Source: Escherichia phage 241. From it: 64,000 nt of DNA. Positions 1 to 19,622 of the stretch are shown here, piece after piece. The notes beneath the pieces were generated by a model, which saw only the letters and a list, made by a program, of their open reading frames with translations, did no database searches and was not told the DNA's origin. The position numbers and the translations under genes were made by a program. The first letter of the stretch is position 1; each line of letters opens with the position of its first letter. The stretch lies in the sequence record OR924452, one strand, 5' to 3'.

Positions 1-285
1 TGTCTTGCGACTGCCGATGCCGACTTATTAAGTGCTAAGGGGGATATCTATATCCCCGATAACCAATACAGGAACAAACAAGTTTGTGACGGTATACAGA
101 AGATGATAGACAGCGGAGTCAAAGTCGTTCTGTTTCCACCGGAAATACCGTGGAAGGATATCAATGATATGGTTCGCCCCGACAAGGGAAATATCCCGAT
201 ACGTGATCTGCTTCAGATCATAGCCAAGAACGTATATCAGGGACTGTCGGCGTCCTTACGATTTTCTGACTTGAGGAAGATATGA
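1..285 (+). CDS. 3' end of a gene starting upstream of the window; C-terminal tail (VVLFPPEIPWKDINDM) loosely resembles the end of a TOPRIM-type primase
   Basis: Frame 1 is open from nt 1 to the stop at 283-285; motif resemblance only. Confidence 0.3.
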   Translation, partial: CLATADADLLSAKGDIYIPDNQYRNKQVCDGIQKMIDSGVKVVLFPPEIPWKDINDMVRPDKGNIPIRDLLQIIAKNVYQGLSASLRFSDLRKI

Positions 286-491
286 TGGATTTAAAAGAAC
301 TGAATAGTATGGACGATGAAGAGATTCTTCGCGGGTATATGCAAGCCCGTGAAGGATATGTCCTATCTGGTTTAGAATCTAAGAGTTTCATCCATGGTTG
401 GAGGAACGGAATGGTGGACTTCGGCGGTTGTCCTATCACTGAAGAACAAATGAATTTGGCTCGCCAGTATTTGAAAAAGAAGCCGACCTAA
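282..491 (+). CDS. hypothetical protein (69 aa)
   Basis: ORF with ATGA overlap to upstream gene; followed by a terminator hairpin. Confidence 0.45.
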   Translation: MMDLKELNSMDDEEILRGYMQAREGYVLSGLESKSFIHGWRNGMVDFGGCPITEEQMNLARQYLKKKPT

Positions 492-519: not shown

Positions 520-545
520 AGGCCTCATTCTACGAGGCCTTTTAA
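520..545 (+). terminator. rho-independent terminator
   Basis: Hairpin AGGCCTC-attctac-GAGGCCT followed by TTTT. Confidence 0.55.
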
Positions 546-690
546 AATACTTCAAAAATAATTTAAAAATTTATTGAAAAAGACTTTACTCTTCAATAAT
601 CATGCACTATTATAGTTCACATAGGGCGGTACACAACACCCCGCCGAATGAAAAGTGAAACGACCCAACTACATTATGAGGAATTACATC

Positions 691-1179
691 ATGGCTACTA
701 CCAAAACTCTGATCACCAACGGCACCATCTCTTTTGAACTGAACACCGAAGTTGCAAAAGTTGAAATGTTCCGCATCGCTCAGGCAGCTGGCTTCACTGG
801 TGGCAAAACTTCCTTCATGAATCTGCTGAACGGCAAAGTGAAAGCGACCAACGGCTTCACCCTGGTAGAGCAGGTTGTCGTAGACAAAGCCGTGGTTGCC
901 AAAACTGCTGACAAGGTTGGCATGCTGAAAGACCTGGGCCATGACATCCACGTTGTCGAAGCGAACACCGAAACTTACGGCACCATCGTAGTCGGAAAAG
1001 GGCGCATTCAGCTGAACCCGCTGAACAACGGAACCTTCTCCGTGATGGTATTCCCGAAAAAGGGTTATGACAACAGTGATATCGTGAAAGCCGCTGGCGG
1101 TGAAGCGAAATCCCAGTATGTCAAAATGGGTAAACTGAGCGCCGACGCAGTAGAAACTCTGGTGAGCAAACTGGCATAA
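691..1179 (+). CDS. abundant hypothetical protein (162 aa), strongly codon-optimised
   Basis: GAGGAA Shine-Dalgarno 8 nt before ATG at 691; codon usage dominated by CTG/GGC/ACC/AAC/CGC unlike neighbouring genes; terminator directly downstream. Confidence 0.6.
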   Translation: MATTKTLITNGTISFELNTEVAKVEMFRIAQAAGFTGGKTSFMNLLNGKVKATNGFTLVEQVVVDKAVVAKTADKVGMLKDLGHDIHVVEANTETYGTIVVGKGRIQLNPLNNGTFSVMVFPKKGYDNSDIVKAAGGEAKSQYVKMGKLSADAVETLVSKLA

Positions 1180-2694: not shown

Positions 2695-3534
2695 ATGCAA
2701 TCTGCGTCTAAAGTTGTATCCATGAAGCCAGCGAAGACAAAATCTGCTCGTAAGAAAGACACCATCCAGAAGGAAGAAGACTGGATGAAGTTTTCCAAAG
2801 GCGATTTCAAAATTGCTCCGTTCAATGGCCTCTCAGAAAATCAGAACCTCGCATATCAATCCGCACTCAATGAACATCTCACCATCGCTATCGGTCCGGC
2901 AGGTACAGGCAAATCCTATTGTGGTGCGTCCGCTGCTGCCAAGCATCTGATTGACAAAACCATCAACAAGATTATCATCACGCGTTCTCCTTTACCGACT
3001 GGAACCACAGCGGGGTTCCGGCCTGGTGACACATATGAAAAGCTGATGCCTTATTTGATGCCGCTCATACAGACATTCAAAAAGGTTCTCAAAACAGATA
3101 CGGGTTCCGACGGTTTCTTCAACTATCTGTGGGAGAAACGCATCATAGAAATTCAAGACCTTGAAACTGTGAAGGGGATGACTTTCGATGATTGTTTCCT
3201 GATTATCGAAGAGGCGCAGGAATGCGATATGGAGCAACTGAAAAACTTATTGACTCGTGCTTCAGATTCTTCGTACATCTTCGTAAATGGAGATATCAAA
3301 CAGTCTAACAAGCGACTGCGTGATAGTGCGTTACAGACGTATGTGGATTCCTTTAAAGACTTCAACAACAAGCTGGAAACAGGTTCTTTGCAAATTGACG
3401 GTGTAGAAATCGGAGATGAATATCCTGAGTGGGTTCAGCCATTCAGCATCATCGAATTCGATAAGTCTGATCGTAATGGTCGCGGTAACTTCACCCGCCT
3501 GATGTTAGAAATTAACGACCTGTACAACATTTAA
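2695..3534 (+). CDS. phoH: PhoH-like ATPase
   Basis: Walker A AIGPAGTGKSY and overall PhoH-like architecture; start moved to ATG at 2695 with AGGAAGG RBS (the track start at 2659 is GTG). Confidence 0.8.
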   Translation: MQSASKVVSMKPAKTKSARKKDTIQKEEDWMKFSKGDFKIAPFNGLSENQNLAYQSALNEHLTIAIGPAGTGKSYCGASAAAKHLIDKTINKIIITRSPLPTGTTAGFRPGDTYEKLMPYLMPLIQTFKKVLKTDTGSDGFFNYLWEKRIIEIQDLETVKGMTFDDCFLIIEEAQECDMEQLKNLLTRASDSSYIFVNGDIKQSNKRLRDSALQTYVDSFKDFNNKLETGSLQIDGVEIGDEYPEWVQPFSIIEFDKSDRNGRGNFTRLMLEINDLYNI

Positions 3535-3618
3535 ATACCACACGAACTTCCCCGTCGCCTTCAATCCATGGAGGCGACGTATAATAACAGCCTGCATTAA
3601 CACAAACCGAGGATCGCT

Positions 3619-7650: not shown

Positions 7651-8112
7651 ATGTCCAACAAATTACTCACCAACCCCCGCCACAACTTTGGTTATATCCA
7701 ATTACCAGAAGTGATAGACACGTTGTTTGCTGAAGACAAGGAAGAAGTTTGTTGGGCACCAGCGACCCTTATTGAACGCGAAATTTTCAAATCTGAAGTA
7801 GACGTGATGTTCCGCATCGGTTCATCCGGAGACCTTCATTATTTGGGGAAAGTGACCGAGTTAAAGACCTGCCATGCTCAAAGATTTTTGCGCATTGACA
7901 CCACTCAATGTGAAGACATTTCATTCAGCATTCTGCGTGAATATGTTCAGGTCAACCGTCCTGTGTATCAACACCGTCCTTATTTGACGTCGATGCATAT
8001 AGACAATTATATTTCCGACATTCATTTACGTGCATCAACTATCCATGAAGAAGATTCTGGTATCGCGGTTGATACAGTACTCAATATGATCGTCATTACT
8101 TTGGTGCCGTGA
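7651..8112 (+). CDS. hypothetical protein (153 aa)
   Basis: ORF with GGAG RBS. Confidence 0.5.
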   Translation: MSNKLLTNPRHNFGYIQLPEVIDTLFAEDKEEVCWAPATLIEREIFKSEVDVMFRIGSSGDLHYLGKVTELKTCHAQRFLRIDTTQCEDISFSILREYVQVNRPVYQHRPYLTSMHIDNYISDIHLRASTIHEEDSGIAVDTVLNMIVITLVP

Positions 8113-8113
8113 T

Positions 8114-8452
8114 ATGTACAAATTCCCGATATTAGAAACAGTGTACTCTGTTCACAAAAAGGAAGGTCCATTATTTGAAAATTTGGATATTCTGTTAAAG
8201 GAAAATGTCCGTATCCCTCTGGTTCTAAAGGGAAAGCAAATAGGATATAGCCATGACTGCCAAATAATGCGTTCTGAAGGCACCGACGTCTTACGCATCC
8301 GTCTAACATTTGTGTTGACAGGTAATCTGGACGGTATGGTGGTTAATCTGAAACCAACCACCATAGTCCACAGAACGGGTGGGAAAATATTATATCGTTT
8401 ATTAACTCATTTTGAGTTGGTGACAAAATGCTCTGCCACGGACGTTCTTTAA
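8114..8452 (+). CDS. hypothetical protein (112 aa)
   Basis: ORF immediately after the upstream stop. Confidence 0.45.
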   Translation: MYKFPILETVYSVHKKEGPLFENLDILLKENVRIPLVLKGKQIGYSHDCQIMRSEGTDVLRIRLTFVLTGNLDGMVVNLKPTTIVHRTGGKILYRLLTHFELVTKCSATDVL

Positions 8453-8833
8453 TCAATTTGTCCGTTTCAACCATATGGTGTCTGTTATCGGCTCTGGGTT
8501 GTTGACCACATAAAACGTTATGGTTACACCCAGAGAATGATAATCTTCAGACAATGACACATCAACTGATTGTATCTCCGCTCTCGGTTCAAATAAAGCA
8601 ATCGCGTCTTCAACTTTGTTTTTAACATCAACCTGAATTGTGGGATTCGTATTTTCCCCCAGCATGGTATACAGCCCAGCCCCGATACTTGGGTATGTCG
8701 GCCAATCCCCAACTGTTGTCATCACGATATTTCGTACGGATTGCAACACGGCATAGACACCTGTTTTCTTTGTGACATCTTTGGTGACCGGATGCATGCC
8801 AAACTTCAGGTCAATGTCCTTGTACTCTTTCAT
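8453..8833 (-). CDS. 25: baseplate wedge protein, gp25/GPW family
   Basis: About 127 aa; pattern DIDL...IVMTTVGDWPTYPSIGAGLYTMLGEN parallels T4 gp25 (..IITTRKGSRPFDPEFGCDLSDQLFEN..); AAAGGGG RBS before ATG at 8833. Confidence 0.7.
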   Translation of the reverse strand: MKEYKDIDLKFGMHPVTKDVTKKTGVYAVLQSVRNIVMTTVGDWPTYPSIGAGLYTMLGENTNPTIQVDVKNKVEDAIALFEPRAEIQSVDVSLSEDYHSLGVTITFYVVNNPEPITDTIWLKRTN

Positions 8834-8897: not shown

Positions 8898-10523
8898 TCA
8901 TGCGTCTTTACCACCAAAGTTGCCGCCATTATCCTCCAGTTCCGGTTTTATATCAATTGGACCAGGACCAGAAGTAGATACCGGAGTTGCCCCAGCGCGT
9001 GATGCAGCACGACCAGCACCTTCAGCATATTTGATGTTGCCTTCAATAGTCTGCGCCACCGACAACTTATCACAAACTATTTCACTAGCCAGTATTTTAG
9101 GCACTTTTAAAGTATTGGAAACTTCCAACATCTCACAGATGATACGCATCACGTTTTGCGCCTGAATTTCGGCCAGCTGTGAAAATTTCATCAACGCCGT
9201 GCCAGCAACCACATTGGAGTAGTTCGATGAATGTAGATGATAGACCTCACCTGTCTTGCGCTGAACTTCAGTCCCACCAATGGTCAGGTTGTGATCACGA
9301 CCAACATAGTAACGTTTGTCAAACATCGTCAGATCATAATGATCTTTGACTGATTTATTGACCACGTCCCCGTCAGGAAGCATCTGCTTATAAGACCCCG
9401 AGGAGTGCATCCAATGGAGACGTTCCCCGCCTGGTGTGTCATCAACCTCCATGATATGCCCTGACCGAGATGCCATGACATTGTTGTAAGGATAACGAGA
9501 CCCGCCAGCAGAAGGAACCGACACCTCTCCTGTGTTATCAATATCTTGAACACGCCCAGAAGGAGGCGGAGTTTCCTGAACTTTTGGTGTACGATCAGGG
9601 ATTGGCTCAGACCATTTACCATTTTGTTGTGTAGGAGCCGCCGATGCTGTCGTAGCAGGACCAGGCCAACGATAACCCAACACAGATGAGCGGCTGAAGC
9701 GACTCACCTTCACAGAATCTGATTGGTTGCCTCCAATACACCAAACATAATTGGCATCGAATTTCTGTACAAACGCAACGTGTCCAAATGTTGGGTTGTT
9801 GCCACGACGGAATACAACAACTGCGCCGTAACGGGGTTCTGACAAAGGGGAACCCCATTGCAAATATGAACGAGCCAAAGCCGAGCGCGTTGAAGTGTAT
9901 CCTGCTTGGATCAACACCCATCCCACAAATGAAGCGCACCAGCTGACTTCATCTTCCGAAGCGCCCAAAGATGTTGTCTTGTGATATTCCAAAATCCTTG
10001 GGTTATTATTGAATTTGCCAGAATATTCTTTGACACCTAATTCACCACGAGCCACTGTCATCCATTTCTCGGGATCATAACCGTCCACAGGCGGTTGAGG
10101 TTCTGGTTGTGGGTCGTCTTCAATCTTGACAGGAACATTTTCAACGGCGTTATATTTCTGTCTTTCTATAGATTGAACAACCTGGCCCAGCGCCAACGGG
10201 TTTGTGTCTGAACCATCCGTTGGTGTCGCCGCTGGCCAAACCCAGGCGATACGAATATTTTGGTATGCTTCATCCAAAGCAAATCCCATAACATCCGACC
10301 CGACTGTAATACCCGTTGGAGACCAGCCTAAACCTGCCGAGGAGGCGTTGGATGCTGGCATGAGCATTTTACCCCAAGGCAATAATTCGGTAGGTAAGAG
10401 AGTGGTATCTTCCGTGTGTACGCCATAGATGCGCACAGCGACGCGCCCGTTCTGGTCGGGATCATTCACGTCTTCAACGCGCCCGTAAAACCAACGCAAG
10501 TTGTCTAACATATTGAAACCCAT
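8898..10523 (-). CDS. 5: baseplate hub / tail-associated cell-wall hydrolase, gp5-like, with a CHAP/NlpC-P60-type domain in place of the T4 lysozyme domain
   Basis: N-terminus RWFYGRVEDVNDPDQNGRVAVRIYGVHTED resembles the gp5 N-terminal OB domain; central region has a Cys...His pattern (SWCASFVGW ... GHVAFV) typical of CHAP amidase/peptidase domains. Confidence 0.6.
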   Translation of the reverse strand: MGFNMLDNLRWFYGRVEDVNDPDQNGRVAVRIYGVHTEDTTLLPTELLPWGKMLMPASNASSAGLGWSPTGITVGSDVMGFALDEAYQNIRIAWVWPAATPTDGSDTNPLALGQVVQSIERQKYNAVENVPVKIEDDPQPEPQPPVDGYDPEKWMTVARGELGVKEYSGKFNNNPRILEYHKTTSLGASEDEVSWCASFVGWVLIQAGYTSTRSALARSYLQWGSPLSEPRYGAVVVFRRGNNPTFGHVAFVQKFDANYVWCIGGNQSDSVKVSRFSRSSVLGYRWPGPATTASAAPTQQNGKWSEPIPDRTPKVQETPPPSGRVQDIDNTGEVSVPSAGGSRYPYNNVMASRSGHIMEVDDTPGGERLHWMHSSGSYKQMLPDGDVVNKSVKDHYDLTMFDKRYYVGRDHNLTIGGTEVQRKTGEVYHLHSSNYSNVVAGTALMKFSQLAEIQAQNVMRIICEMLEVSNTLKVPKILASEIVCDKLSVAQTIEGNIKYAEGAGRAASRAGATPVSTSGPGPIDIKPELEDNGGNFGGKDA

Positions 10524-11030: not shown

Positions 11031-11834
11031 TTAAATGAAAATTTCAGTGACACTGTTAAATTTGACTTCATGTTCTTTCCCACACGAAGGACATTTAATT
11101 TTCGTCGCGTAACGGATACGAGGAATCTTTTTAAAGAAATCGTCGGATATATCTTGAACAATCTCAGATTCAATATTTTCCCCCACCCATTTAACAAATT
11201 CATCTTTGACACGTTGACGTTCTTTAGCAACATCAGGTGCTATGCCAGGCTCTGCCGGATTCTCTACTTTCCAAACCTGACCATCATCGTCATACAAACA
11301 ATCAATAAATGTCGCGATCATTTGCTCCACAGATGATGCTTCGTTGAGCACTGAGGCGTCCGAGAAGGACGGTTGACGCATCTTGATGTGATAGCCACCA
11401 GGGAGGTCAAATGTTTCCCTGAAGCCTTCTGGGGACACGCATTTCACTTGGTTGAGGGGGATCGGTAAAACAAGTTCTTGACCACATTCTTTAAGGCCAG
11501 AAACTGGTTCTTCACCTTCATTTGTGTCGGATGGAACTTTGTTGTTACATTTGTATCGTATCTTCATGACCTCGCCGATAGATATACAGCGCATCTTTAA
11601 AAATACTTCTTCAGTAACACCGATTGGCAGTTTACTAAAGGGAACCCCAGCGTCAACACAACTATCAAACAGTTGCTCCAGCGTCGCTACACGTTCACTC
11701 ATAGGAGTGTTCGGATCAGCAACCTGAAGTAACATGGTCTGTTGCCCTGCTGTGAAAGCGCGGTATTTAATCACCGTCGGCCAGAAATCACTTTTGTGTG
11801 TTCTCTCAGTTTTGGGCAATGATGGTAAATTCAT
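11031..11834 (-). CDS. late structural protein, probably baseplate-associated; C-terminal CPSCGKEH zinc-ribbon-like motif
   Basis: GGAGA RBS before ATG at 11834; T4-type late promoter TATAAATA about 29 nt upstream; adjacent to gp5. Confidence 0.5.
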   Translation of the reverse strand: MNLPSLPKTERTHKSDFWPTVIKYRAFTAGQQTMLLQVADPNTPMSERVATLEQLFDSCVDAGVPFSKLPIGVTEEVFLKMRCISIGEVMKIRYKCNNKVPSDTNEGEEPVSGLKECGQELVLPIPLNQVKCVSPEGFRETFDLPGGYHIKMRQPSFSDASVLNEASSVEQMIATFIDCLYDDDGQVWKVENPAEPGIAPDVAKERQRVKDEFVKWVGENIESEIVQDISDDFFKKIPRIRYATKIKCPSCGKEHEVKFNSVTEIFI

Positions 11835-11862
11835 AATGTATCTCCACGGTATATTGTAACCA

Positions 11863-12871: not shown

Positions 12872-12908
12872 TCCGGTCTAAATACCCATAACACAATGAA
12901 ACTTCGTT

Positions 12909-13520
12909 ATGGGTATTTTTATGAAATTTTGCGGAATCGACTATTCTTATGGCTGTCCTGCCATGTGCTTCTGGGATGATAAAGATCCTTTGGATTTTGA
13001 CCATCTTCATTTCTATGCGCATCATACTGTAGAAAAACATTGTCGTCAGGTACGGCATAACATCCTCATTTTACGCCAGCCGAAATATGAATCCCCAGAA
13101 GAACGCTTCTACAATATCTCCAAATGGGCCGAAGCTGTTCTTCTAACCGAGAAGCCTGATTTCATCACCCTTGAGGGGTACGCAATGGGCAACTCGAAGA
13201 ATTCCAATAACATATGCCAGACTGCTGAAAATACATCTTTATTGAAGCAAGCAATGCGCCGGAATAATATGGAATTCCAGATCGTTACTCCTTCTTTCGT
13301 TAAAAAGCATTTCTGTGGTAAAGGAAACGCCGATAAATTGGTAATGATCGATCATTTCGAGAAGCTGTTCAACGTTAAGATGCGTGGTATAATGGACATG
13401 TTGGACGTGAAGGATCCAAAGCCTATCGATGATCTTGTAGACTCATTCGCAAACATGGTGTCTGGACCTTACTTCATAGAAAATTATCCCGATTTCAATA
13501 GAGGTGTAAGAAATGATTAA
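12909..13520 (+). CDS. possible RuvC-like Holliday-junction resolvase
   Basis: N-terminal MKFCGIDYSYG resembles the RuvC GID motif, with a later acidic TLEGYA and C-terminal IDDLVDSFA; weak; two in-frame ATGs (12909, 12921). Confidence 0.35.
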   Translation: MGIFMKFCGIDYSYGCPAMCFWDDKDPLDFDHLHFYAHHTVEKHCRQVRHNILILRQPKYESPEERFYNISKWAEAVLLTEKPDFITLEGYAMGNSKNSNNICQTAENTSLLKQAMRRNNMEFQIVTPSFVKKHFCGKGNADKLVMIDHFEKLFNVKMRGIMDMLDVKDPKPIDDLVDSFANMVSGPYFIENYPDFNRGVRND

Positions 13521-14621: not shown

Positions 14622-15659
14622 ATGGGTAATTTATTTGATCGTCTTAAACAATCTCGTGGCCAACAAGCCGAAGCCATGCAACAGCGTCTCGCTCAGCAAG
14701 GTCAGCGTGTTGGTGGCGGTCGTGACCCGCGCATCTGGAAGTGGACTTGGAATGAAAAAGGCACTTCCGAAAACATTATTCGTTTCCTGCCTATCCCTTT
14801 AGTGGACATGAAGGCTCAAGAAGAAGGCACCATCCCTGAAGATGCTGTGTTAACTCCATGCGCCATGATCATGAAACACGCTTTCCAGGGTGCTGGCGGC
14901 TGGTATATCGAAAACTCACCTCAGACTTTCGGTAACGATGATCCGGTTCGTGACCATGATCGTCCTCTGTGGGCACAACAGAAAGAAACGAACGATGAAA
15001 AACTGAAGACGGTCCTGAAAAAACGTCTGCCGGACACCAAATACTACGCCAACATTCTAGTGATCAAAGATGGCAATAATCCGGAAAATAACGGCAAGGT
15101 CTTCTTGCTGGAATTCGGTAATGCCGTCAAGAAAATCCTGGATTCGGCTCAGAATCCTAAGTTCTCAACCGACCCGAAATTCGACCCGTTCGATATGTGG
15201 GAAGGTGCGAATCTGATTCTTAACCTGTTCGGCGAAGAGAAAGAGTTCGGAAACTGGAAAGGCCTGGTTGCCAACTTCACCAACGTGAAGTGGGATAGTC
15301 CGGCACCGCTGGGAACCGACGAATACATTGAAGAGATCTGGGAAAAAGAGCACAGCTTGTTTGAGTTCTTTAATCCGGCCAACTTCAAATCGTACGAAGA
15401 TCTGGAAAAACGTTTGCGCAAAGTTCTGGCCATCCCTGATAATCAGCCTCTGGTTGAAGGCGGTGCTTCTACTATGGCACATGCGCCTACCCAGTCTCAG
15501 GAACCCCAGCGCCCTACAGCGCAGGAAAGTCTGAACCAACAACAATCTCAGCCTTCTAATGCACAGCAATCTGTTCCAGCCAATAATGGTGGTGCGGGTG
15601 CCGATGCGAAACAGACGGCTTCCATTGATGAGTTCGAGCAGTTCCTGAAGCAAGACTAA
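14622..15659 (+). CDS. 32: single-stranded DNA-binding protein, gp32 family
   Basis: Shares IRFLP, WYIE, ANILV.KD...PEN.GKVF and WEGAN blocks with T4 gp32; acidic C-terminal tail; codon-optimised. Confidence 0.85.
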   Translation: MGNLFDRLKQSRGQQAEAMQQRLAQQGQRVGGGRDPRIWKWTWNEKGTSENIIRFLPIPLVDMKAQEEGTIPEDAVLTPCAMIMKHAFQGAGGWYIENSPQTFGNDDPVRDHDRPLWAQQKETNDEKLKTVLKKRLPDTKYYANILVIKDGNNPENNGKVFLLEFGNAVKKILDSAQNPKFSTDPKFDPFDMWEGANLILNLFGEEKEFGNWKGLVANFTNVKWDSPAPLGTDEYIEEIWEKEHSLFEFFNPANFKSYEDLEKRLRKVLAIPDNQPLVEGGASTMAHAPTQSQEPQRPTAQESLNQQQSQPSNAQQSVPANNGGAGADAKQTASIDEFEQFLKQD

Positions 15660-18662: not shown

Positions 18663-19622
18663 ATGTCCTATATTCTTCATATCGAGTCCGGCCTGAAATT
18701 TGAAATTGATGGTAAAACCGCTGCTGATCTTCAAGCAGAAATCAAAGGTGCAGACCTTATCATCGGCAACGTCACGTTACGCCGTATGATGGAAGGCGTC
18801 CTCCAGTCAGCCAACGGCTTTGAACTCATTGAAGGTCTGAGCCAGGAAGAGAAAGAAGAGACTCTCGAAGCTCTTGACCGCGCTGAAGCCGAAAAAGTTA
18901 AACCGACCGAAGATGCGGGGGTTAAACAGGGCGACGGTGAATCAAATCCGGTGATTGACGCCGAAGAAACGGTTGGGCAACCTGTCGGTGATCAAAATTC
19001 CCAGACCGTCGAAGACGGTTCTCTTGAAGTCAACAAAGACGGCTCCATTTCCCTGGTAGTTGAAGGCGAAGAAGTTCTTGACGAAGAAGCGCAAGTCCGT
19101 GCTGAAGAAGTTCGCCGTCGTATGCTGGGCACAACCGTTGCTGAAGCAATCGCCGACGTTGAAAATCCGAAGGATGATCAGGCTTTAGCGAACGCGAAGG
19201 CGGTTCTGGCCAAGAAATCTTCTGAAATGCGTCCTGCGTCTTCTACTGAAGAACGCAAGCGTCGTCATAACAAACGTGAAGAAATGGTTGAAGCCGCTCG
19301 TGCTTCTAACTATGGTCCAATCCTGGCGGCGGTTGAAGCAGGGGTTACTCCTGAAGTATATTTGAGTTATGTGAACCCTGATATGCGCTGGTTCCAGTTC
19401 CCTGTCACTGAATTGGCAGACGAAGCCAATCCGCATGCCCGCACTAACACCTATGTTGATCTGGCACCTATCGTTTCCGGCGGCTGGGGTTTCAGTCTGT
19501 ATGTGAATGGTAAGTCATTCACCAAGCGTCAGAAAATCAAAGAAACTGACGCTGAATCTCTGGTAAAGGCTATCAACGAATGGCTACCTCAGGCGTTGGC
19601 CGAAGCGAAAGCTGCTGCGTAA
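18663..19622 (+). CDS. acidic hypothetical protein (319 aa), codon-optimised
   Basis: ORF; E/D-rich middle region; high-expression codon usage. Confidence 0.5.
   Translation: MSYILHIESGLKFEIDGKTAADLQAEIKGADLIIGNVTLRRMMEGVLQSANGFELIEGLSQEEKEETLEALDRAEAEKVKPTEDAGVKQGDGESNPVIDAEETVGQPVGDQNSQTVEDGSLEVNKDGSISLVVEGEEVLDEEAQVRAEEVRRRMLGTTVAEAIADVENPKDDQALANAKAVLAKKSSEMRPASSTEERKRRHNKREEMVEAARASNYGPILAAVEAGVTPEVYLSYVNPDMRWFQFPVTELADEANPHARTNTYVDLAPIVSGGWGFSLYVNGKSFTKRQKIKETDAESLVKAINEWLPQALAEAKAAA

Follow-up and report, generated by a model that had tools for sequence, protein, structure and literature searches.

Among the closest described systems to the gene considered here are gene 32 of phage T4, with an autoregulatory operator in its leader, and TF1 of phage SPO1, an abundant HU-like protein of a hydroxymethyluracil phage. 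In this work we analyse an open reading frame (ORF) at positions 691-1179 of a 64,000-nucleotide stretch of Escherichia phage 241 (OR924452; this whole stretch is referred to as the window), a Kuttervirus of the ViI-like group in the family Ackermannviridae. Like the T4 gene 32 unit, the 691-1179 gene combines a product of predicted abundance with strong codon adaptation and a 5' leader that is both structured and conserved; it differs in that its product has neither an OB-fold nor homology to gp32. With SPO1 TF1 and other phage HU-like proteins the product shares small size, basic charge, predicted high expression and an apparently non-enzymatic character, in phages with hydroxymethyluracil-derived DNA. 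It differs from them in its predicted two-domain alpha/beta architecture: in Pfam neither the protein nor 24 members of its family matched an HU/IHF fold or profile, and the phage has a separate HU-like gene.

ViI-like phages (CBA120, ViI, LIMEstone and the Klebsiella Taipeiviruses) have been studied widely and serve in biocontrol and therapy, and over half of their genes have no assigned function. Combining codon-usage statistics, comparative genomics, structure prediction and published virion analyses, we consider it likely that the 691-1179 product is a very abundant intracellular protein of early or middle infection that stays out of the virion. More tentatively, it may be an abundant nucleic-acid-binding factor acting stoichiometrically at that stage. 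The gene is apparently among the two or three most heavily expressed of the whole family, and its protein is universally conserved, non-particle and resembles nothing characterised; if made in such amounts, it must matter either for takeover of the cell or for organisation of the phage genome.

Codon bias, conservation and virion proteomics

The preliminary description of this stretch had reported an extreme high-expression codon bias for the gene, and the codon adaptation index (CAI) bears this out: at 0.624 it ranks first among the 99 ORFs of the window (z = 4.5), in rankings that use crude ORF calls, with an effective number of codons (Nc) of 31.0. The CAI weights follow the E. coli w values of Sharp and Li (1987); Nc and the C-ending fraction at Phe, Tyr, Ile and Asn do not depend on these weights, and both agree with the CAI. 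None of 20,000 synonymous resamplings at window-wide codon frequencies reached the observed value (mean 0.306, maximum 0.438, z = 10.1), and at the same frequencies the probability that all 12 Leu codons are CTG is 3e-7. Similar preferences are seen for AAC (9/10), ATC (6/7), TTC (6/7), GAC (6/7), GAA (7/8), AAA (15/17), CAG (4/4), CCG (2/2) and CGC (2/2). The earlier wording, that such codons as CTG, GGC and ACC are used almost exclusively, conveys a strong preference correctly and slightly overstates GGC and ACC, as the 16 Thr codons comprise nine ACC and seven ACT and the 16 Gly codons include nine GGC and four GGT, ACT and GGT also being preferred codons. The few other genes singled out for such a bias, those for the acidic protein at 18663 (0.457) and for gp32 at 14622 (0.432), are indeed next in the window.

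In CBA120, the genome of which was pieced together from four loci to give 203 ORFs, the major head protein ranks first in CAI (0.705), the ortholog of the 691-1179 gene, orf104, second (0.666) and the HU-like orf125 directly below it (0.583), followed by a 672-aa hypothetical protein, the scaffold, the sliding clamp, orf176, a 56-aa ORF and the tail sheath, with gp32 twelfth. Because known abundant proteins head this ranking, codon bias can be used as a proxy for expression in CBA120. The place of orf125 beside orf104 is a further likeness to HU-like proteins, and orf125 itself, HU-like and of high CAI, recalls SPO1 TF1. Among 51 local genes of CBA120, none has a lower Nc than orf104 or a higher C-ending fraction at Phe, Tyr, Ile and Asn (0.81 versus a median of 0.47). 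Six other genera share the bias, with orthologs that include those of Dickeya, Klebsiella, Erwinia and Vibrio phages: the CAI is 0.693 in LIMEstone1 (z = 4.1), 0.654 in KpS110 (z = 4.3) and 0.58 in Erwinia phage phiEa2809, where Nc is the lowest of 54 local genes, and in two Vibrio phages the ortholog has the lowest or second-lowest Nc locally. In Vibrio phage YC both paralogs head the 27 local genes in codon bias, with C-ending fractions of 0.96 and 0.89 against a median of 0.64. The CAI thus lies far above background and stays there in orthologs, as in a highly expressed gene, and judged from these sequences the bias is an old, maintained property under long-standing selection. Together with a promoter, hairpins and Shine-Dalgarno sequence of its own, all conserved, the CAI ranking and the bias across genera add weight to the earlier opinion that the protein is probably made at very high levels; it is from these features that we infer its actual abundance.

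The protein matches PHROG 3764, a function-unassigned family, over its full length (E 7.7e-93, residues 1-162 against profile positions 1-162 of 162). Orthologs include CBA120 orf104/gp080, ViI Vi01_089c (labelled a 'putative uncharacterised protein'), LIMEstone1 ORF073 and Sajous1 gp1, and among the matches listed, of 356 phage records matched, every record bears the label 'hypothetical'. Megablast of positions 400-1500 matched 270 phage records, all ViI-like among the matches listed, the best being Salmonella phage STML-13-1 (96% identity). A homolog search of 5.8 billion clusters gave 61 matches, all phage-type, lying on contigs of about 160 kb or having the same small two-domain architecture, and an exhaustive HMMER search of 1.84 billion representatives gave only 38, none named and all phage-type; no bacterial homolog was found in either set. 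Across these searches the family is confined to Ackermannviridae-like phages, where the gene forms part of a syntenic core found in every Ackermannviridae genus examined: it lies downstream of the primase gene in CBA120, ViI and LIMEstone1, across genera it stays in one syntenic group with the genes for primase, endolysin, PhoH and NrdA, and it is always located among replication and nucleotide-metabolism genes.

These observations bear on a different explanation of the codon bias, named in the preliminary description as what would overturn it, in which the bias reflects recent acquisition from a bacterial host and not expression. A GC content of 50%, against 44% for the window, and of 0.60 at third codon positions could be taken as signs of such an origin. 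Set against them, the bias tracks the context of each phage, Vibrio phages included, and the phage-only homologs, the conserved position beside the primase gene and the bias kept across genera exclude a recent host capture, to which we assign a negligible probability.

The same description had suggested an abundant structural, DNA-binding or internal protein, and virion proteomics speaks against the structural and internal parts of this suggestion. ORF073 is not among the 39 proteins of the LIMEstone1 virion proteome (PMC3296691). The mass spectrometry (MS) table of CsCl-purified Sajous1 virions lists proteins detected down to a single spectrum, including traces of SSB, glutaredoxin, endolysin and rIIB, and gp1 is not in it (PMC10892097). 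In phage AG3 none of the six strongest virion bands corresponds to it, and the band at 17.7 kDa is the tail tube (PMC3121705). Absent from these three published analyses, the protein has no support as a structural or internal component. A decoration, internal or other structural role would suit a small protein without Cys and Trp that comes close to the major capsid protein in codon bias, and the neighbouring high-CAI gene at 18663 does encode a virion protein; even so, given also that the Protein Data Bank (PDB) sequence set holds no solved structure with a related chain and that the sigma-70-type promoter is unaccompanied by a late-type motif, we regard a virion role as very improbable.

The protein encoded at 18663-19622 (+), acidic, 319 aa long and second in window CAI, has Sajous1 gp29 as its ortholog, a protein that gave 10 spectra in CsCl-purified virions (PMC10892097). 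Because of this detection it is, unlike the 691-1179 protein, probably particle-associated.

The upstream cassette and the timing of expression

The features of the locus are collected in Table 1. A canonical intrinsic terminator (-12.1 kcal/mol, z = -4.9 against shuffles) closes the upstream unit of the primase gene and a 69-aa ORF; its hairpin is kept in CBA120, LIMEstone1 and KpS110, and the LIMEstone1 annotation places a terminator at the equivalent position. The hairpin past the stop codon, by contrast, folds no better than shuffles (z = -0.9) and was not called by the terminator scan, so that the gene, earlier described as bracketed by terminators, has a convincing one on its upstream side. 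A hairpin is found at this place in every genus, with differing sequence and a U tract that is weak or absent; it looks less like a strong terminator than like a leaky one or an element stabilising the 3' end of the mRNA. No Rfam family matched positions 400-1400.

Between the terminator and the gene, the A/T-rich tract is conserved across Kuttervirus, Limestonevirus and Taipeivirus and may function in the manner of an UP element. It is followed by a putative sigma-70-type promoter, for which TTCAATAA-N11-TATAGT at 592-616 offers an alternative reading; the five genera aligned all share CTTTAC and the -10 hexamer, and LIMEstone1 is annotated with a 'putative middle promoter' at this site. The -35 hexamer is flanked by an inverted repeat, the arms of which are exchanged in phiEa2809 (TTCAATAA-N15-TTATTGAA) with the inverted symmetry around CTTTAC retained. 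An inverted pair placed in this way, with its symmetry kept, suggests an operator, and the repeat may be a candidate for one.

The 5' untranslated region (UTR) contains, a few nucleotides from the predicted transcript start, a hairpin whose stem is invariant in five genera and whose loop is variable, and which may serve as an mRNA stabiliser or a translational operator. The ATGAGG at the Shine-Dalgarno sequence is likewise invariant in the cross-genus leader alignment, and conservation is striking over the whole upstream stretch in Kuttervirus, Limestonevirus and Taipeivirus. By inspection the 5' UTR is better conserved than the coding DNA, which is about 79% identical to that of KpS110; phiEa2809, despite a protein only 53% identical, retains CTTTAC, the -10 hexamer, the GGGCGG/CCGCC stem and ATGAGG, so that the leader appears conserved beyond the coding sequence. 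Both YC paralogs carry near-identical promoter and 5' leader cassettes. Such conservation would fit an autoregulatory operator of the kind found in T4 gp32, and by this analogy we put forward autoregulation of the 691-1179 gene as a conjecture.

No copy of the late-type motif CTAAATAC is present upstream of the gene. Given this, the sigma-70-type promoter, the 'middle' label in LIMEstone1 and the replication-gene neighbourhood, we infer early or middle expression. The late-type motif, ACTAAATAC, was derived from k-mers enriched upstream of CBA120 genes, and 9 of the 10 to 11 copies of its form ACTAAATA(C) in the CBA120 genome lie upstream of genes; a late promoter consensus of ViI-like phages was stated as not identified in the CBA120 genome paper. 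In the window, late-promoter-like (T/A)(C/T)TAAATAC(C) sequences are found at 1757-1765 before the endolysin gene, at 3530-3538 before nrdA and at 12877-12886 before the ORF at 12909.

The gene, which encodes the Kuttervirus member of a small family restricted to Ackermannviridae-like phages, forms a strongly conserved expression unit complete in itself, in the order terminator, A/T-rich tract, sigma-70-type promoter within an inverted TTATTGAA/TTCAATAA repeat, 5' hairpin, strong ribosome-binding site, near-optimal codons and 3' hairpin. The conserved cassette of promoter, leader and hairpin could offer a ready module for strong expression in the engineering of ViI-like phages.

Table 1. Features of the 691-1179 locus and related elements (window positions unless stated otherwise)
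Feature	Position	Strand	Description
Intrinsic terminator	520..544	+	stem 520-526/534-540, GGCCUCA/UGAGGCC-type, then TTTT
A/T-rich tract upstream of -35	541..584	+	read from the sequence; UP-element-like
Inverted repeat flanking -35 hexamer	571..599		TTATTGAA (571-578) / TTCAATAA (592-599)
Sigma-70-type promoter (predicted)	585..613	+	TTTACT-17 nt-TATTAT; 9/12 matches in promoter scan
5' UTR hairpin	625..645	+	predicted fold; GC stem GGCGG/CCGCC (5 bp), 11-nt loop
Shine-Dalgarno sequence	678..682	+	GAGGA, 8 nt before ATG 691
Coding sequence	691..1179	+	162 aa, 17.2 kDa, isoelectric point (pI) 9.25; PHROG 3764 member
N-terminal domain, aa 1-64	691..882	+	beta-beta-alpha-alpha-beta (AlphaFold2 prediction)
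Flexible linker, aa 65-74	883..912	+	predicted local distance difference test (pLDDT) score < 50 at residues 65-71
C-terminal alpha/beta domain, aa 75-162	913..1176	+	alpha-beta4-alpha-beta-alpha (AlphaFold2 prediction)
GC-rich hairpin just past stop codon	1186..1203	+	7-bp stem, then CUUAUUCAGAUUUUU; weak U tract
TTCAATAA boxes near -10-like hexamers	592, 25857, 28763, 32093, 60472(-), 63283(-)		
Vibrio phage YC paralogs	8953-9378 and 11410-11838		numbering of the YC locus studied
Pseudomonas phage Cygsa01 paralogs	8092-8724 and 8992-9816		numbering of the Cygsa01 locus studied

Architecture and candidate roles of the protein

The protein has no Cys and no Trp and is rich in Val (20), Lys (17) and Ala, Thr and Gly (16 each), in agreement with the earlier statement of a Gly/Val/Lys/Thr-rich composition, to which Ala may be added; its pI is 9.25. 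The AlphaFold2 model (pLDDT 82, of moderate confidence) predicts two small domains. The N-terminal domain holds the best-conserved motif of the family, G-x-x-G-G-K-T-S-F-x-x-L, and the invariant residues cluster here (G34-x-x-G37-G38-K-T40-S41-F42) and in the TETYGT, GR.Q.NP, FPKKG and KSQY motifs of the C-terminal domain. The length of the linker varies among the 52 family members from 6 to 93 residues; Ala, Pro, Glu and Lys are frequent in it, and in several members it is basic. A few relatives retain the N-terminal domain and bear other C-termini. A Walker-A reading of GFTGGKT was rejected, the spacing being one residue short and the motif lying between two helices. Processing by a prohead protease, which in T4-style systems cuts at L/I-x-E sites, was likewise set aside, as the sole LVE site (residues 58-60) is not kept in Klebsiella phage orthologs.

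The homology and structure searches that had been recommended assign the protein to PHROG 3764 and connect it to no characterised family or fold relative. Pfam gave no meaningful match for the protein or for 24 family members, a single-sequence search of PDB sequences gave none, and at E < 1e-3 Foldseek against BFVD returned only relatives from the same family, all uncharacterised. A partial match to the NCBIfam GlcV C-terminal region, at 18.8 bits against a cut-off of 450 bits, was discarded. The protein is thus in no characterised family, and readings as MotA, P0, HU or E2 are at best resemblances at the level of the fold.

In the role that we tentatively favour, the product would be made before or during DNA replication in amounts nearing those of the major capsid protein and be kept out of virions. 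With two small alpha/beta domains, a flexible linker and a mildly basic charge, it would act stoichiometrically in the infected cell as an architectural or regulatory nucleic-acid-binding factor, coating or organising DNA or RNA instead of catalysing a reaction. This role is favoured because of the conserved positive charge, the basic linkers, a domain swap involving DUF3489, the over-conserved leader and the CAI rank beside an HU-like protein. The median pI of the 52 family members is 9.2, in 51 of them the C-terminal domain carries a net positive charge, and eight conserved charged positions are K/R against two D/E. Some long-linker relatives (P0068, P0083, P0084 and P0085) have basic Lys/Ala/Pro-rich linkers, and in the relative P0096 the C-terminal domain is swapped for DUF3489 (E 3e-5, below the Pfam cut-off), which we take to be a winged-helix-like domain.

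Several observations weigh against this role, and we consider nucleic-acid binding somewhat less likely than not. The net charge of the 691-1179 protein is only +4, and three long-linker relatives are acidic overall (pI 4.8 to 5.5). No DNA- or RNA-binding fold or motif was recognised in Pfam, PDB sequence or NCBIfam searches, and the best fold matches of the C-terminal domain are to protein-binding modules: E2/UEV/RWD-like, PsiB and secretion-chaperone-like. The phage already encodes HU-like and 'histone family' proteins, and the literature yielded no expression or binding data for the protein; nor did it yield a paper citing any of the protein accessions, or an Ackermannviridae infection transcriptome or proteome. 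Finally, the protein evolves, on the sequences compared, only moderately slowly. Identity is 94 to 99% across Kuttervirus, Agtrevirus and Limestonevirus (99% inside Kuttervirus); at 94% to LIMEstone1 it is the top among neighbouring genes, and it is not the top at 70% to KpS110 or 53% to phiEa2809, the Taipeivirus value of 70% comparing with 83 to 89% for neighbouring enzymes. The ranking against neighbours in these three phages carries no clear message.

The fold matches bring in the main rival, a stoichiometric protein-binding inhibitor or 'sponge' titrating an abundant host protein or a defence signal, for which PsiB acting on RecA and phage sponges for immune nucleotides are analogies. Having no Cys, the protein has no E2-type catalytic residue; the catalytic Cys of the E2/UBC superfamily is also absent in UEV and RWD variants. 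Its invariant polar residues E94, Y96, R105, Q107, K124, Q142 and Y143 could shape a specific pocket, paralog pairs are present in YC and Cygsa01, and the moderate evolutionary rate is that expected of a host-facing protein. The similarity to E2/UEV/RWD- and PsiB-like domains amounts to 4 to 15% identity, with an extra beta-alpha unit after the core in the predicted structure of the 691-1179 protein, and at the level of these models the scores are too low for inferring homology. Anti-defence genes are mostly accessory and variable, in contrast to a syntenic core gene so closely conserved within Kuttervirus, and a titrating role seems less likely than the nucleic-acid-binding one.

Very high abundance and a basic pI would also suit a ribosome-associated factor, in which the N-terminal domain would imitate a portion of the stalk protein uL10/P0, and the family profile, searched against the PDB sequence set, matched uL10/P0 chains only (over GxxxGKTSFxxL). 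The best of these matches had a non-significant E-value of 0.11, all are homologs of one protein, and Pfam RL10P_insert was unmatched in 24 of 24 family members. The aligned segment, a helix in the model, is presumably a strand in P0, and we take GKTSF to occur in eukaryotic and not in archaeal P0, which makes a chance match likelier; we give this possibility still less credence than a virion role.

The promoter of the 691-1179 gene also raises the question of middle transcription. The window holds 22 copies of the TTCAATAA box where 5.0 are expected, a count reached in 0 of 100 shuffles, and the box is concentrated in the intergenic 8% (at least 9 of the 22 copies). In many intergenic regions it precedes a TATAAT-like hexamer by 11 to 14 nt, a spacing that resembles the geometry of T4 middle promoters with their -30 box. 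The composite TTCAATAA-N11-13-TAnnnT is found six times in the window against 0.15 expected, and CBA120 has about a dozen intergenic TTCAATAA copies with 12-nt spacing. The motif is frequently present in direct or inverted pairs round the -35 hexamer, a box is found in the promoter of the CBA120 HU-like 'DNA binding protein' orf125 (record 71625-71903), and a second box class has the form TTTACTTCTTCAATAA-N6-TATAcT.

ViI-like phages have been reported to possess neither MotA nor AsiA, and no known middle-mode mechanism (PMC3184105). The 691-1179 protein might then be the 'missing' MotA-like activator, with its C-terminal domain on TTCAATAA near -30 and its N-terminal domain on RNA polymerase. 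The box statistics, the shared plan of two domains plus linker and the DUF3489 domain in place of the C-terminal domain in one relative are all consistent with this. Direct comparison with MotA is less encouraging: hhalign of the family against seven MotA sequences (T4 and six homologs) gave a probability of 2.8%, the MotA N- and C-terminal Pfam models matched none of 24 members at E up to 10, and tblastn with T4 MotA placed no Ackermannviridae phage among the matches listed. The N-terminal domain of T4 MotA is all-helical, unlike the predicted fold here, and the E2/RWD type accounts for the order of secondary structure in the C-terminal domain no less well than the MotA 'double-wing'. MotA moreover works with AsiA and binds sigma-70 region 4, whereas no AsiA is reported in ViI-like phages (PMC3184105). 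Capsid-like codon optimisation predicts expression far above that expected for a promoter-specific activator, and in phiEa2809 the box is rearranged in the promoter of the ortholog itself. We therefore see the protein as only a weak candidate among binders of the TTCAATAA box, and a MotA-like activator as quite unlikely.

Somewhat less improbable, in our estimation, would be an unrecognised kind of phage factor, needed in capsid-like amounts because it binds one-to-one to a very abundant cellular target such as ribosomes, RNA polymerase or nucleoid DNA and reprograms it for Ackermannviridae. It might do so through the TTCAATAA boxes, which flank its own promoter as an inverted repeat and lie near -30 in about a dozen other promoters. 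Identification of the target could bear on how early and middle transcription is controlled without MotA and AsiA.

Start codon, paralogs and neighbouring reading frames

The ORF extends from ATG 691 to TAA 1177-1179 (162 aa). An in-frame ATG at 676-678 overlaps the Shine-Dalgarno sequence 15 nt upstream; in Klebsiella phage KpS110 a 2-nt deletion shifts it out of frame, which identifies ATG 691 as the true start. Two paralogs each are present in the distant relatives Vibrio phage YC and Pseudomonas phage Cygsa01 (Table 1).

An antisense ORF of 113 aa at 610-951 (-), wholly within the gene and its leader, is most likely no gene and would result from the strong codon bias of the sense strand; in two other loci a greedy ORF caller mistakenly chose such an overlapping ORF over the real gene. 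The 69-aa ORF at 282-491 (+), between the primase gene and the terminator, is seemingly variable: in many Kuttervirus records, ViI among them, the alignment starts no earlier than window position 477, and ViI has no annotated coding sequence at this place, where CBA120 (orf105) and LIMEstone1 (ORF074) have a small ORF.

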